Assembly: GCA_003144275.1 (NCBI GenBank)
Contig: NJBF01000012.1
Location: forward strand, 30,001 to 62,000
Reading direction: 5' to 3'
Source of the DNA: Candidatus Heimdallarchaeota archaeon B3_Heim
GTDB taxonomy: Archaea > Asgardarchaeota > Heimdallarchaeia > Hodarchaeales > Hodarchaeaceae
Length of the DNA: 32,000 bases
Shown piece by piece: positions 24,499 to 30,112 of this stretch. Made by a program: the position numbers and the translations under genes. The number at the start of each line of letters is the position of its first letter. The first letter of the stretch is position 1. Below the pieces are notes generated by a model, which saw only the letters and a list, made by a program, of their open reading frames with translations, did no database searches and was not told where the DNA came from.

Positions 24499-25274
24499 AG
24501 TGTTGTTTTTCTCAAGCCTAATTAATTTTACTCAGAATCCACAACAAATTTTTACCAACAAAGGATTTACTCAATTTGTGAATAAATAAATTTCTTTCAG
24601 ATTCAGAAATCTCTCTCTGTCTCACGGTTATAAGAAATTACATTCCAATAAACACAGATAATATTAGAATATTTGAGCTGGAACAAAATACAGTAATAAA
24701 GACCCCTCATAGTCAAACTAGTAACTATTATCGATTTTAAGGAGAGATATGAGATATTTCTTAAGGAACAATCTCCGATATCCTCAATCATAATAGTTAA
24801 GGAAAATGGATTATTTTGTCGGATTTACTTAAAATCTCATTTGTCTCAGTCTTCAACGTCATTTTGTCAATAAAATAAAATAAAATCTAGAAATTCAGTA
24901 TAAGATTAAACCTTGGTCATAAAAACAATTCAAAAACGTTAGTTCACAACTATTTCAACTACAAACGAATTTCCAGATCCTAATACTTCTCTTAGGATAT
25001 TTCTCTTAGAGAAAGAGTGACCCCCCGATAGTAGATATTTTTTTTTGGAAAATAAAACCTGAAAAGGACTTAACTTTAGAATGGTCTTTGGAAATCTTAA
25101 ATAATTTTAATGAATTTAACCTAGTGCTTTATATTAATATTGACACTAAATCCTGTACTAAACTCTCATCTTGGTACAGCTGGTTGAATCTGTACGCTAA
25201 CTGAAATAAATCCCACATTCAGCTAAACGATTAATTATGCTATGATCCTTGTACTAGATATTATGTAATATTAT

Positions 25275-25427
25275 TCAATCAATTCCGCTACCAAGTGGAC
25301 CATTCATACCCGCGCCAACAGTGGAAGCAACCATGAACAATAATATCATGAATATCAAAGGAAGCATTTTTAGTAGTACTAGTTCAGCATTGAATTTCGA
25401 TTCTCTTATTCTTTCTTTCTTTTGCAT
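25275..25427 (-). CDS. small 50-aa signal-peptide-like protein, candidate secreted peptide precursor (MQKKERIRESKFNAELVLLKMLPLIFMILLFMVASTVGAGMNGPLGSGID)
   Basis: Manual translation, below the ORF-track cut-off. Archaeal SD GGTGA 6 nt before ATG; basic N-region, long hydrophobic core, V-G-A putative cleavage site and polar Gly-rich tail. Confidence 0.7.
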   Translation of the reverse strand: MQKKERIRESKFNAELVLLKMLPLIFMILLFMVASTVGAGMNGPLGSGID

Positions 25428-25530
25428 TTATTTTCACCATTTTCTTTAAAGTCGTCATTTTCAGTTTTTGGACTAGAGAAAATCTCCGCATCTTTTTACT
25501 GAAATTACTGATAACTTTACTAGATATCCT

Positions 25531-25537
25531 TATAAAC
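25531..25537. promoter_or_regulatory. TATA-like TTATAAA in the divergent peptide/regulator intergenic region
   Basis: The palindromic core TTATAA lies about 40 nt upstream of ATG 25577 and could act in either direction. Position-based inference only. Confidence 0.35.
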
Positions 25538-25576
25538 TATACGATGATCCTCATATATCACTTAGGACGAAATAGG

Positions 25577-27019
25577 ATGCAACCTCAAAGCCAAAGCACA
25601 GAAATAATCGATAGGATCCGACAAAATCCTGAACAGAAGGTAGATACCTTCGTTCTTGATTTTCTGGATATTTGGTTTGAGATTCACAATTTAACTGAAA
25701 AATGCAATCTTGAGGATGCACTTAAGATATGTCAATCATTACTACCTTCCCATATCCTCCCATTTTTTGAAAAATACAAAGATGAGGGGAATCTACAAAA
25801 GCACAAGGGATGGATCGACGCGTATGCATCTATCTATCTGAAATGGGGTGAACGAGGAGGATTTCTTTTTCCGTTAACTCTGGTCATATACGAAATTGCG
25901 TATAATGATAAGGGAATACTATTCGACCTTCTAAAGCAACTAAGGATGGGTATTAATAGAGGTAGCAAGGTCGAACTTTACGAAATAATATTTCCCATTT
26001 TAACTAATTTTACCGTCCCTCTTGATGAATTAGATTTAGGTATAATGAAAGCATATCAAACTTTGCAACCTCTAAAATCTATCTTATTCAAAAACCCAGA
26101 GAATAAATCGTTTGCTGAAATCCTTGATGTTTCAACCCGAACGATAATACGTAGATTAAAAGTTCTTAATCTACTCCAAATTGTACGTCCTGTTCAATTT
26201 ATTGACATGGGGAAATTAGGATATGAATCATTACTTTACGTTCATCAAAATCCGTTTCCAAAAGAATTTCAGAAAAATTTGCTATTTTCGTGCAATTTAA
26301 CGGTAGGAAACTTCAGCATTGTGCAACTACCATCATCTCAGCTTGCAGCTCAGACTAAACTTCAAGATAAACTTGATTTGATCATGGCTCAACCGATGGT
26401 AAAGCGTACAACCTCCTGGAATCTCAATAGTCTCTCCAGTGGAGAAGCGACGTGGAAGAATCCACCTACGTTCTTCTTTTCAAAACCCGAAACAAGTGTA
26501 ACTACTCCAACTGCTGATGTTAATCTAAATCTAAGACCAACCTTCGACTCCTTCAGAAAATTAACGCGAGCAGATTTCAATCTATTAGATTTCATCGCAA
26601 GAGAAGGCGGATTTAAAAATCTCAATGATTTAAGTAAAGCAATTAAAGTAAATAGGATGGAAGTCTCTAACCGATTAAAAGAGTACACCGATGAAGATCT
26701 AATTTTCAAAGCTCATCAATTTTTCAACATCGGATTGGATCTGTCGATTTTCTTCTTTATTTCAGATGTTGAAGATAAAATTCCGTGGATTTCACACCTT
26801 CTTACTTTTCCCAAAGTCGATGTCTTCTATCAGAAAGAAGAGAACCCTCATTATTATTTCGGTTATCTTAAACTTCCCAATACGTGGATCAAACCATTTG
26901 CACGTAAGATAGATCTTATTCGCAATGAGTACGATGTTAAAGTCTATTATAAAATTGCGAGTGCCATTGATCACTTCAAATGGGGAATTTCATTGGCAGA
27001 TACCTACTCATATCGTTAA
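25577..27019 (+). CDS. large transcriptional regulator with two tandem Lrp/AsnC-type wHTH modules and an uncharacterised N-terminal helical domain
   Basis: Module 1: LDELDLGIM...FAEILDVSTRTIIRRLKVL...IDMGKLG. Module 2: LTRADFNLL...LNDLSKAIKVNRMEVSNRLKEY...NIGLD. Start ATG 25577 or 25544. Confidence 0.8.
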   Translation: MQPQSQSTEIIDRIRQNPEQKVDTFVLDFLDIWFEIHNLTEKCNLEDALKICQSLLPSHILPFFEKYKDEGNLQKHKGWIDAYASIYLKWGERGGFLFPLTLVIYEIAYNDKGILFDLLKQLRMGINRGSKVELYEIIFPILTNFTVPLDELDLGIMKAYQTLQPLKSILFKNPENKSFAEILDVSTRTIIRRLKVLNLLQIVRPVQFIDMGKLGYESLLYVHQNPFPKEFQKNLLFSCNLTVGNFSIVQLPSSQLAAQTKLQDKLDLIMAQPMVKRTTSWNLNSLSSGEATWKNPPTFFFSKPETSVTTPTADVNLNLRPTFDSFRKLTRADFNLLDFIAREGGFKNLNDLSKAIKVNRMEVSNRLKEYTDEDLIFKAHQFFNIGLDLSIFFFISDVEDKIPWISHLLTFPKVDVFYQKEENPHYYFGYLKLPNTWIKPFARKIDLIRNEYDVKVYYKIASAIDHFKWGISLADTYSYR

Positions 27020-27402
27020 TTTTTCATAATAAACTTGAAGAGGAGAGTATAGTTCAGTATCAATTTTTATGACCAGATTTCTGCCTAAATTATTGACGAG
27101 GATGAAATTCGGGAAGGTTCTCGTCTGCCTGGTGGTTACTATGGGATTATTTCATTCAGCATCAGACTCTCTGGGGTGATAAATTTCTTTATCATCGTGT
27201 CGAATTTTCTGGGACAGAATGGTCACTTTCTTTAAGATTTCCTACCATTATAGTAATTTTCTCGAAGAATTACCCTGAATTATTGAAGCGAACAACAATT
27301 TATAAGGAACATAATTCTCCTACCACTTAGTGTCCTGCCTACTAATAAATAAAGATTTTTTGTTGGTAAAAGCTTAATTCCAATAATTTGAAGGATGTAA
27401 AT

Positions 27403-28020
27403 ATGCAAGAAAATACAACTAATTTACGCATTTACGGCCCACAGATGCCTGAGGCTATTGAACGATTGCATAATCTAGAAGAGAAAGTAGTTGCTGAATT
27501 ACCCATCGAGCGTGGTGAGATCAATATTGGTAAGTATGATTATATTTACCACTGGGAAAAAGCACCCACTCCTGAGCCTTTATTAACTCTTATTGAATAT
27601 ATTGATGATATATTTACTGGTTTACCCGCTCGCTATTCCATTACTACAGAGGGATATCATTCTCGCCGATTAACAGCAGAACTTGACCGTCGGGGTTCAC
27701 ATACAACTTTCAGCTTTGTCCGGATTCACGGACCGAGCATATCGAAAGCTCTTCGGGCTATTGAAAAAGTTGTAGAAGATGTCGAGACTACAAGTACAAT
27801 ACAATCACTAAAATCGTCTGTTCTTGTAGGTGAGCAGGATTATGCCTTTGAATGGGATCATTATCCTACAGTGGATGAGATTCATAGTTTACTTGCCTCA
27901 ATCGATAAGCTAGTTGAACCTACAGGCGCTTTGTACAAAACGTCTACCTTAAAAAACGTCTATCGGACTGAAAAAGTGATTGACGATCATACTTCTGATA
28001 ATTTAATGGCATTCTTATGA
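27403..28020 (+). CDS. hypothetical protein built from two internally repeated domains of about 80 aa
   Basis: LRIYGP...IGKYDYIYHWEKAPT...IDDIF...ARYSITT vs VRIHGP...VGEQDYAFEWDHYPT...IDKLV...ALYKTST. ATG 27403 follows AAGGA; the ORF track starts at TTG 27388. Confidence 0.85.
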   Translation: MQENTTNLRIYGPQMPEAIERLHNLEEKVVAELPIERGEINIGKYDYIYHWEKAPTPEPLLTLIEYIDDIFTGLPARYSITTEGYHSRRLTAELDRRGSHTTFSFVRIHGPSISKALRAIEKVVEDVETTSTIQSLKSSVLVGEQDYAFEWDHYPTVDEIHSLLASIDKLVEPTGALYKTSTLKNVYRTEKVIDDHTSDNLMAFL

Positions 28021-28090: not shown

Positions 28091-28357
28091 ATGAATTCTG
28101 CGGAAAAACGACGACTACGGGCAATACTCATTCTAAGTCTATTTGTAATCTTAGCCTGGGCACCGTGGATTACAGAAGATAGGGCAAATGAATTAGTTAC
28201 TAGTCACCTAGGAGGGGAGACTCCTTATAATTACCTTGGGGAGACTGTTTTAGTCAAGAATATTCCACGGTCTTTTGTAAAACTTCCATTTATTGCGTTA
28301 GTTTACTTCCCTGGAGAAGCAGTTTATATTGTCACGTTTTTTGGCTGGGTAATTTAA
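28091..28357 (+). CDS. small hypothetical protein with N-terminal membrane anchor/signal sequence
   Basis: Basic KRRLR followed by hydrophobic AILILSLFVILAWAPW; 88 aa; fills the intergenic space. Confidence 0.7.
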   Translation: MNSAEKRRLRAILILSLFVILAWAPWITEDRANELVTSHLGGETPYNYLGETVLVKNIPRSFVKLPFIALVYFPGEAVYIVTFFGWVI

Positions 28358-29065: not shown

Positions 29066-30112
29066 TTAAAAGGGAAACAGGGTGAAAAATAGAAGTAATT
29101 CAAAGGGTAACATGATTAATGCCAATAATGTCACTATTGTGATAATAGAGCTCATTAAAGCCTCATTTAGCTCGAAAAACGTTGCATAAACAATATTTGA
29201 AACTGCTGGAGGAGCCATACTTTGAATTAATAGGGGTATAGCTATAATTGGTGCAAAATTAAATATTGATACTGCTATAATGGTAAAAATTGGAACTATG
29301 ATGAACCTAATTCCCGAAACTTGAAATTTATGTCTTGTAAAGAGTTTTCGAGGATGTAGATCACTCAAATTTCGAAAAGAAACGCCCACTAACAACAAAG
29401 ATCCATATAACGCGATAGTTTTCCATATCTGCAACCCTGGAAAAGCTCTGATTACTTCTGGCCCTACTAGAAGATGAAGGATAAATCCTACAATGACTGC
29501 TAAGAATGGAGGAAACTTACACATATCGATAAGGAGCTTCATGAACAGTAAGTCTCCTTGTTTATCGTTCTCTTCAACTCCTTGTGATTTATTACGAAAT
29601 TTTCTCCCCATATACATCCCAAAAGTATTGCGTATTATCATGGCAAAAAATACAAAAAGTGTAGCATAAACAATTGCATCATTTATGAATACACCTTTTA
29701 TTATAGCATCATTTCTTAATTCAACTTCCAATGCAAGTATTATTGGGAATGGATACAACAACGCATTTGGAAAAGTGGCAGTAAATGCAATAGCTCCGTT
29801 ATCTGGCGTGGATCCTTCTTTACGAGTGAGAAATATAAAAAAATAATATCCTCCCAAGTGAACTAAGATAGCAATTATCGCAATCTGTAAAATAATTATC
29901 CCTCCAAATGTTTCGACTTTAGCAAATGACGAAATTATCGAAATTGGGAAGAATATTGAAATAATGACTTTAGTGATGTTATCTGCATGGCTCTTTTTGT
30001 AAAAGGGGGAAAATCTCCATAATATTCCTAGTAAAATAAACAAATATACCCAGAAAAGGTCGCTTAATAAATCTACAAAACCAGTAATCGCGTCCATATC
30101 AGTCATCACCAT
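29066..30112 (-). CDS. AEC (auxin efflux carrier / membrane transport) family permease
   Basis: About 10 TM; TATFPNALLYPFP, KFPPFLAVIVG and QSMAPPAVSNIVYA motifs typical of the AEC family. Confidence 0.82.
   Translation of the reverse strand: MVMTDMDAITGFVDLLSDLFWVYLFILLGILWRFSPFYKKSHADNITKVIISIFFPISIISSFAKVETFGGIIILQIAIIAILVHLGGYYFFIFLTRKEGSTPDNGAIAFTATFPNALLYPFPIILALEVELRNDAIIKGVFINDAIVYATLFVFFAMIIRNTFGMYMGRKFRNKSQGVEENDKQGDLLFMKLLIDMCKFPPFLAVIVGFILHLLVGPEVIRAFPGLQIWKTIALYGSLLLVGVSFRNLSDLHPRKLFTRHKFQVSGIRFIIVPIFTIIAVSIFNFAPIIAIPLLIQSMAPPAVSNIVYATFFELNEALMSSIITIVTLLALIMLPFELLLFFTLFPF

Follow-up and report, generated by a model that had tools for sequence, protein, structure and literature searches.

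A tiny gene divergent from a double-Lrp-like regulator: a candidate peptide-signalling cassette in a Hodarchaeales archaeon

The locus and its small gene

Contig NJBF01000012.1 of the Asgard archaeon Candidatus Heimdallarchaeota archaeon B3_Heim (assembly GCA_003144275.1, 3.95 Mb, 36% GC) carries two genes in head-to-head orientation, an unannotated open reading frame (ORF) of 50 codons and the gene of a 480-aa protein, here called the regulator. We analysed the pair within a stretch of 32,000 nucleotides (positions 30,001 to 62,000 of the contig), hereafter the window, whose own numbering is used. An earlier note, made from the letters of the window, had proposed that the small ORF encodes a secreted peptide precursor and the regulator its receptor. 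From homologous loci and structure models, the small ORF and the regulator appear a credible candidate for peptide signalling in archaea. The features of the locus are as follows.

25275..25427, minus strand: small ORF, 50 codons plus stop, putative pre-peptide MQKKERIRES...GAGMNGPLGSGID (translation, homologues, dN/dS)
25368..25427, minus strand: codons 1-20, basic n-region of net charge +3, with R6 and R8 invariant in the family and K20 nearly so (alignment A2)
25308..25367, minus strand: codons 21-40, hydrophobic core MLPLIFMILLFMVA with invariant P23, then a polar small-residue c-region, STVGAG, with the conserved G-x-A/G (alignment, layout)
25278..25307, minus strand: codons 41-50, tail MNGPLGSGID, candidate mature peptide and ligand (complex model contacts, dN/dS)
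25435..25439, minus strand: GGTGA, a Shine-Dalgarno-like element 8-12 nt upstream of the small-ORF ATG (sequence)
25428..25576, no strand: 149-bp divergent spacer with both promoters (sequence)
25470..25492, no strand: operator-like site 1, GGACTAGAGAAAATCTCCGCATC, a CTAG-centred half-palindrome (motif search)
25514..25537, no strand: operator-like site 2, TTTACTAGATATCC, the site itself at 25514-25527, abutting the regulator TATA-like box TTATAAA at 25530-25536 (motif, alignment)
25577..27019, plus strand: gene of the 480-aa regulator, the presumed receptor, stop codon included (AlphaFold2 model)

The small ORF is a real coding gene that annotation had missed. Pairwise ratios of nonsynonymous to synonymous substitution rates (dN/dS) of 0.2-0.3 over the whole ORF reveal the purifying selection that the earlier note had proposed to check. 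The elements read from the sequence at the outset (50 codons, GGTGA, basic N-region, hydrophobic core and V-G-A-G stretch) were all found again at the positions listed, and so was the head-to-head placement, with an ATG-to-ATG spacer of 149 bp. Selection was uneven along the protein: in clade A, the best sampled, the N-region (dN/dS 0.15) and the hydrophobic part (0.12) were more constrained than the tail (0.60), which is the most variable and fastest-evolving part. In the alignment of small proteins, M1, R6, R8 and P23 were invariant and K20 and G43 nearly so, and a C-terminal hydrophobic residue followed by Asp was common among the tails. A GGTG-type element was observed at the equivalent position in most orthologous loci. 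Also, the small ORF of the closest relative was identical at the nucleotide level with differing flanks, and the single change within the ORF of a metagenome-contig variant was synonymous.

Similarity searches with the small protein itself gave little. Its sole match in a collection of 5.8 billion proteins (reference shifted by one codon) was itself, a feature search of the ESM Atlas returned no usable match, and Pfam gave just a match to RseC, at chance level. Concerning the tail, the proposed sequence was retained; its proposed length of 11 aa after V-G-A is less favoured, the family alignment setting the site between G-A-G and M, which gives the 10-aa MNGPLGSGID. Judged from the motif, cuts after V-G-A (11-aa tail) and after G-A-G (10-aa tail) are both possible.

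Two 151-nt contigs from one metatranscriptome run lay over the small ORF and its flanks (25158-25308 and 25328-25478), and another RNA run covered parts of the regulator gene. Two runs labelled as metatranscriptomic whole-genome sequencing are probably DNA. Positions that no RNA contig covers carry no information on expression.

Recurrence of the gene pair and its spacer motifs

The earlier note had suggested that homologues of the regulator be searched for recurrent, divergent, signal-peptide-like short ORFs. Such ORFs were indeed found, well beyond what chance would give: at ~47 loci, a small ORF of 43-78 aa (median 51) diverges from a regulator homologue at a distance of ~110-270 bp, and the regulators of these pairs span three subfamilies, with identity down to 23%. 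Class I small ORFs, located by tblastn and then by a hidden Markov model of the small protein, measure 49-53 aa and diverge from 24 different regulators (35-95% identity), with ATGs 111-170 bp apart. For class II (regulator identity ~32%), a divergent ORF ending ...TQG[VIS]A-DPLEGPYPPIGY was observed in three of five loci. Class III regulators (~23-27% identity, about one per genome) were accompanied by a divergent ORF of ~50 aa in 18 of 22 loci, with ends of the form ...LG[IV]A-DP plus a Pro-rich tail. One still more distant member faces a called 49-aa divergent gene whose tail is Pro/Gly-rich. The tail types by regulator class are G-P-x-G-x-x-I-D and A-P-P for class I, DPLEGPYPPIGY for class II and DP with a Pro-rich run for class III. 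Where a genome carries several cassettes, tails differ between cassettes.

Exactly two regulators and two such small ORFs are present in the window's genome, paired side by side. The second cassette, on contig C47 (G000:C47:24053-25815; L002:1507-3218), comprises a class III regulator, 23% identical to that of the window, which diverges at 188 bp from a 56-aa ORF ending ...SLGIADPTTPPPRPPNGDGT. Conservation of the flanking genes ends with the closest relatives; the unit is thus the pair itself, and it has no linked exporter, peptidase or importer.

A single-protein search of 61 relatives gave regulator homologues in all 21 other genomes of the genus; neither this search nor a profile search of 201 genomes of the phylum gave a full-length match outside it. 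Almost all genomes of the genus seem to have retained one cassette per deep class. The family as a whole amounts to just 129 clusters among 1.84 billion representative proteins. Seven loci with weak or partial regulator matches in other families were devoid of a comparable small ORF, and of four distant family members inspected, one had a small ORF, two had none that was convincing and one was cut by the contig end. At the locus of a distant member (L066:34-1371), two further genes come after the 49-aa peptide gene in the same orientation, first one for a 103-aa protein (no Pfam match) and then one for a small GTPase of Arf/Roc type, an arrangement that may be a peptide-GTPase operon.

Tandem arrays of three to five regulator paralogues, just one or two of them with a peptide gene, were observed at four loci: L035 (G020:C234), L036 (G001:C14), L037 (G004:C14) and L038 (G020:C126). 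Short relics of a regulator C-terminus (profile positions ~435-470) lie beside some cassettes (for example L036:5456-5536, L037:4195-4302, L045:3536-3628). The arrays and relics suggest repeated duplication followed by decay.

We then considered the spacers. Those of class I carry a CTAG-centred, partly palindromic motif, yCGrAkA-N4-5-TCTCTAGA, which is often mirrored. Of 21 class I spacers, 20 contain the CTAG core and 13 contain TCTAGA, for which ~0.04 are expected per spacer (0.295 per kb genome-wide), an excess inflated by the relatedness of the loci. As at site 2 of the window, TCTAGA stands immediately upstream of the TATA-like box in clade A. Spacer and both sites are conserved up to an orthologue whose regulator is 81% identical, where the DNA past the small ORF can no longer be aligned. 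Class III spacers (L046-L059) are without the TCTAGA palindrome and have their own conserved motif, TTAATGAAG then GAAAAAATGCA[CT]AAA. Judging from these sequences, the class-specific motifs fit class-specific DNA recognition, and the conserved palindromes are consistent with DNA binding by the regulator. A 491-aa reading of the regulator from the in-frame ATG at 25544 seems an unlikely start, since this ATG lies between the TATA-like box and a conserved leader.

Beyond the pair, 775 bp (24499-25274) separate a class IV aminotransferase gene from the small ORF. This stretch contains no ORF above 62 aa, no Rfam match and no tRNA, and aligns with the closest relative only (~95% identity); the RNA contig over the small ORF extends into it, ~117 nt beyond the stop codon. 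Downstream of the regulator lie genes for a 210-aa protein (27388-28020) and an 88-aa membrane-like protein (28091-28357), and Pfam, NCBIfam and PADLOC gave no match for either. Copies of the 210-aa gene occur in the closest relative and, 87% identical, near a cassette array in G020:C126, and nowhere else.

Export-type layout, regulator model and predicted complex

The layout of the small protein was compared across the family. The N-region was net positive in 47 of 47 members and the tail, its C-terminal carboxylate counted, net negative or neutral in all 47, a charge asymmetry that predicts an N-in, C-out topology. A purely hydrophobic core of ~14 residues is followed by a polar stretch of small residues, usually ending G-x-A or G-x-G in all three classes (S-L-G-T-A, Q-G-V-A and L-G-I-A; V-G-A-G in the window), and then by G/P-rich tails of 9-15 residues. 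G-x-A/G corresponds to the -3/-1 pattern of signal peptidase I sites. Signal peptides of solute-binding proteins from the same genome have a similar general shape. Other signals were rejected by eye on alignment A2 and the list of 47 sequences: the conserved arginines form R-x-R and not the RR of a twin-arginine translocation (Tat) signal, no conserved Cys follows the hydrophobic core as in a lipobox, and no conserved G/A precedes the core as in a class III pilin-type signal. As machinery for an export and re-import loop, the genome offers one archaeal signal peptidase I along with four SBP_bac_5 (Opp/Dpp-type) binding proteins, which are necessary for such a loop, not sufficient.

The AlphaFold2 model of the regulator, built with 19 homologues, reached a predicted local distance difference test score (pLDDT) of 88.6 and a predicted template modelling score (pTM) of 0.84. 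It divides into three parts.

25577..26011, plus strand: N-terminal domain (N-domain), aa 1-145, helical with one beta-hairpin, predicted pocket residues 74-97 and 139-144 (model, contacts)
26024..26419, plus strand: Lrp/AsnC-like unit 1, aa 150-281, helix-turn-helix (HTH) and RAM-like alpha/beta part (secondary structure, Foldseek, weak PH0061/HTH_11 sequence matches)
26564..26956, plus strand: Lrp/AsnC-like unit 2, aa 330-460, HTH and RAM-like alpha/beta part (model, Foldseek, HTH_24 at aa 330-376, below the Pfam cut-off)

The best Foldseek match in the PDB was the fused double-Lrp siroheme decarboxylase NirDL (E 6e-8, template modelling (TM) score by target 0.58, identity 11-12%), followed by many single Lrp/AsnC regulators (TM by target 0.6-0.67). 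Compared with PDB sequences, the family profile gave weak matches to Lrp/AsnC structures at both units (PH0140, PH0061, FL11; E 7e-4 to 0.26), those of unit 2, to PH0140 and other such structures, having E 7e-4 to 2e-2. At the level of fold, the HTH-plus-RAM combination that marks Lrp/AsnC proteins is thus present, twice in tandem. The N-domain folded alone gave a pLDDT of 88.7; its comparison with the PDB by VIA-align yielded no convincing fold match (best Z 4.8), which is not proof of a new fold. TPR-type receptors were absent from the Foldseek and VIA-align matches of the regulator. Having no hydrophobic N-terminus, the regulator is expected to be cytoplasmic. Predicted structures of the same shape, an N-domain with two Lrp units, form clusters of 62-523 members in Thorarchaeota, Heimdallarchaeota and Bathyarchaeota, with no detectable sequence similarity to the regulator family.

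We examined whether the two proteins could be modelled together, a check close to the co-folding that the earlier note had called for. Regulator and full-length small protein were predicted in three runs, next to three controls. The median ipSAE (interaction prediction score from aligned errors) was 0.77 (runs 0.61, 0.80 and 0.77), that of the best of the three controls 0.01. Of 80 solved complexes, 58 attain the mark set for ipSAE, as do 2 of 110 mismatched pairs, figures that apply only roughly here because our own alignments were used. The runs share at least 52% of their contacts, and the pLDDT of the partner is at least 59. The outcome agreed with the proposal: the tail was placed in a pocket, and the confident part of the interface (expected error under 8 A) involved residues 40-50 of the small protein only (G plus MNGPLGSGID), with none from the N-region. 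On the regulator side, contacts were made by residues 74-97 and 139-144 of the N-domain, 160, 173 and 194-206 of unit 1, and 342-347, 380-390, 430 and 461-469 of unit 2.

In the model, the contacts therefore form a pocket shared by all three domains. Aromatic side chains abound in it. Among them, W79, W90 and W469 show little or no variation within class I, other positions vary between clades, and such a pocket would suit a Gly/Pro-rich ligand. Conservation in the pocket does not exceed that of the remaining regulator. We know of no solved complex of this kind, so that the model is unlikely to reproduce a structure already solved. It supports tail binding and is no demonstration of it.

Readings of the cassette and its relation to known systems

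The reading that we place first, and on which belief and doubt are evenly balanced, is a loop of export, cleavage and re-import working like RRNPP/Rgg-SHP with unrelated proteins. The two genes would constitute a self-contained peptide-receptor cassette. The pre-peptide, with its Sec-type layout, would keep its N-terminus in the cytoplasm and place its C-terminal ten residues, MNGPLGSGID, outside; signal peptidase I would cut after the G-x-A/G site and free the tail; and a tail peptide of 9-15 residues would accumulate outside the cell, to be re-imported, for instance by an Opp/Dpp-type ATP-binding cassette (ABC) importer. According to the model, the imported tail could bind the pocket where the N-domain of the 480-aa regulator meets its two Lrp-like units. 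Binding may then alter regulator action on the CTAG-centred palindromes of the 149-bp spacer and thereby close a feedback loop on both genes, in a direction of regulation that we presume. With a regulator that appears cytoplasmic and a tail predicted to face outward, RRNPP logic would be the simplest way to bring both together. A bolder claim is that of true cell-to-cell peptide communication in Hodarchaeales, built on parts without relation to the bacterial ones, namely a pre-peptide exported by Sec and, as receptor, a single double-Lrp chain with a new N-domain, with several orthogonal 'pherotypes' per genome; we find it plausible and lean slightly towards doubt.

The peptide signalling first inferred from the sequence draws support from the recurrent paired ORF, from the subfamily-specific tails and from the modelled tail-pocket contact. 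Several observations weigh against it. Covariation of tails with regulators, a prediction of the earlier note, was observed at the coarse level of subfamilies (tail distance versus overall regulator distance, r=0.66) and not for pocket residues specifically. Thus, a partial Mantel test of tail against pocket residues with the rest controlled gave r=0.035 (p=0.33), positions conserved in class I and altered in class III were 7 of 9 in the pocket versus 51 of 102 elsewhere (p=0.17), and positions discriminating tail types by mutual information showed no enrichment there (p=0.40); power is low, given 24 related pairs and 11 columns of tail. The 'double Lrp' of the earlier note is right at the level of the predicted fold, as seen by Foldseek, and falls short at the Pfam cut-offs: HTH_24 reached 17.6 bits for a cut-off of 21.9, AsnC_trans_reg did not match, and the HTH matches in NCBIfam were all sub-threshold. 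By sequence, the regulator is not a canonical Lrp/AsnC member. DNA binding by the family is inferred, and pocket residues 194-201 fall within the presumed recognition helix of the HTH of unit 1, so that this unit may not bind DNA. Cleavage of the small protein by signal peptidase I is likewise inferred from the motif alone. The n-region is long (~20 residues) and strongly conserved (R6 and R8 invariant, dN/dS 0.15), longer and more conserved than a plain signal peptide needs, so that this N-terminal segment may serve a separate purpose. Some nine regulators, each within a tandem array, are without their own peptide gene. Finally, the metatranscriptome check proposed at the outset returned contigs over the small ORF and parts of the regulator gene, with thin support: the RNA is of low depth, unstranded and contig-based, and DNA carry-over is possible.

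A constrained N-terminal part would suit an uncleaved single-pass membrane micro-protein (N in, tail out), an alternative that had been named from the start. It would act as the main target gene of the regulator or, through its N-region, as a partner that for example tethers or sequesters the regulator at the membrane, with no diffusible peptide. The N-region and core are the most constrained segments (dN/dS 0.12-0.15; R6, R8, K20 and P23 invariant or nearly so), a shared spacer with conserved operator-like motifs fits a regulator and its target, and no tail-pocket covariation was detected. We nevertheless consider this explanation unlikely, if worth serious attention, since the confident model contacts come from tail residues 40-50 and none from the N-region, and since the hydrophobic core is short (~14 residues) and runs into polar small residues like the c-region of a signal peptide. 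Similarly, the G-x-A/G recurs in all classes despite their differing tails, and the tail retains conserved features, namely G43 and the terminal hydrophobic residue with Asp.

Sensing inside the cell would reconcile a cytoplasmic receptor with an external tail without any importer. The regulator would bind the tail of pre-peptide that is not inserted or exported, and would report the capacity for membrane insertion or secretion, or autoregulate, with no signal between cells. Such a role is compatible with the tail-pocket model. Targeting of a 50-aa protein must moreover be post-translational, as it is for tail-anchored and very small secretory proteins, since the hydrophobic segment does not emerge from the ribosome before termination. 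Diversification of tails within a genome, the faster evolution of the tail and the recurring small-x-small site would all be left unexplained, and we know of no precedent with an Lrp-type protein. We regard intracellular sensing as improbable.

Very improbable in our view is a mobile module of the toxin-antitoxin or defence kind, made of a membrane-damaging small peptide and a controlling HTH protein. The cassette does move between genomic contexts with unconserved flanks, is multiplied in some genomes and is confined to one genus, and small hydrophobic toxins are common in such modules. PADLOC, however, gave one sub-threshold match at the HTH level and nothing else, and NCBIfam gave no defence or toxin-antitoxin family; a 480-aa three-domain regulator is unlike known antitoxins. 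A conserved G/P-rich extracellular tail with a modelled fit into the regulator would be unexpected for a pore-forming toxin. The apparent retention of a cassette from every deep class by almost all genomes of the genus also counts against such a module. The idea that the 480-aa protein is a siroheme decarboxylase-type enzyme or scaffold (NirDL/AhbAB) and not a transcription factor, next to a functionally unrelated small ORF, is scarcely credible: NirDL does lead the PDB fold matches (E 6e-8, TM by target 0.58), but identity is just 11-12%, a one-genus, multi-copy and fast-diverging family does not fit a haem-pathway enzyme, no haem-pathway genes lie within the window, and tight linkage to the small ORF and operator-like palindromes point to regulation.

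Returning to export and re-import, the cassette would functionally resemble most closely the Rgg/SHP and PrgX/PrgQ systems (RRNPP, Bacillota), and also the multi-cassette Rap-Phr and Alo systems. With Rgg/SHP and PrgX/PrgQ it shares a tiny precursor gene divergent from the gene of a cytoplasmic HTH receptor (here a presumed one), operator sites (here operator-like) in the shared spacer and, as proposed here, an active part at the C-terminal end of the precursor; export, processing, re-import and binding to the regulator are established for RRNPP and would follow the same course here. It differs in its host, an Asgard archaeon, in a Sec-like n-h-c precursor with an unusually long and conserved n-region, and in its receptor, where the HTH plus TPR array is replaced by two Lrp/AsnC-like units and an N-domain without a convincing PDB match. 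The RRNPP hallmark of a small precursor gene (~20-60 codons) beside the receptor gene in conserved pairs is found at the ~47 loci, and that of a TPR-type peptide-binding domain is missing from the regulator model. Lacking a TPR receptor, the cassette is an analogue of RRNPP systems and not a member.

Rap-Phr, NprR-NprX, PlcR-PapR, AimR-AimP and Alo offer the likeness of a pre-peptide of ~40-50 aa that has a Sec signal and, as is proposed here, yields a short mature peptide from its C-terminus, and of some genomes with many paralogous receptor-peptide pairs, diversified peptides and orphan receptors, as described for Alo in Paenibacillus (PMC7425212). The peptide gene there usually lies downstream of the receptor gene in the same direction, whereas here it is divergent, and the receptor family is not that of the window regulator; profile searches for AloR-like proteins in bacterial and archaeal genomes gave essentially Paenibacillaceae only (PMC7425212).

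As for the fold, Lrp/AsnC regulators (FL11/PH1519, PH0140, Rv3291c, E. coli Lrp) have the HTH and RAM (beta-alpha-beta-beta-alpha-beta) found in each repeated unit here, and ligand control of DNA binding is a theme of that family. Canonical members are of ~150 aa, occur as assemblies from dimer to octamer and have amino acids as ligands between their RAM domains, whereas here two units are fused behind a 145-aa domain without a convincing fold match and the modelled ligand is a 10-residue peptide in a three-domain pocket. NirDL, of the NirDL/AhbA-AhbB group, is a single chain of two Lrp/AsnC-like units as well. It is, in contrast, an enzyme of haem d1 or alternative haem synthesis with neither N-domain nor paired peptide gene, and the window regulator, 11-12% identical, belongs to a one-genus, multi-copy family and has no pathway genes nearby.

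A literature search found no archaeal peptide-receptor system of this type. To our knowledge, all peptide pheromone-receptor cassettes described to date come from Bacillota and their phages. Cell-to-cell communication of this kind, if true, would give Archaea their first described system of peptide quorum-sensing type, one that evolved convergently with RRNPP. If the pair works as proposed, the logic of a tiny precursor beside its receptor would have arisen independently with different proteins. The Lrp/AsnC fold, known for binding amino acids, would then be able to become a peptide receptor. As the finding also shows, a 'hypothetical' regulator can have its key partner in a small ORF that gene callers overlook, and here such a partner would mean that archaea of a lineage often placed closest to eukaryotes sense each other by secreted peptides.

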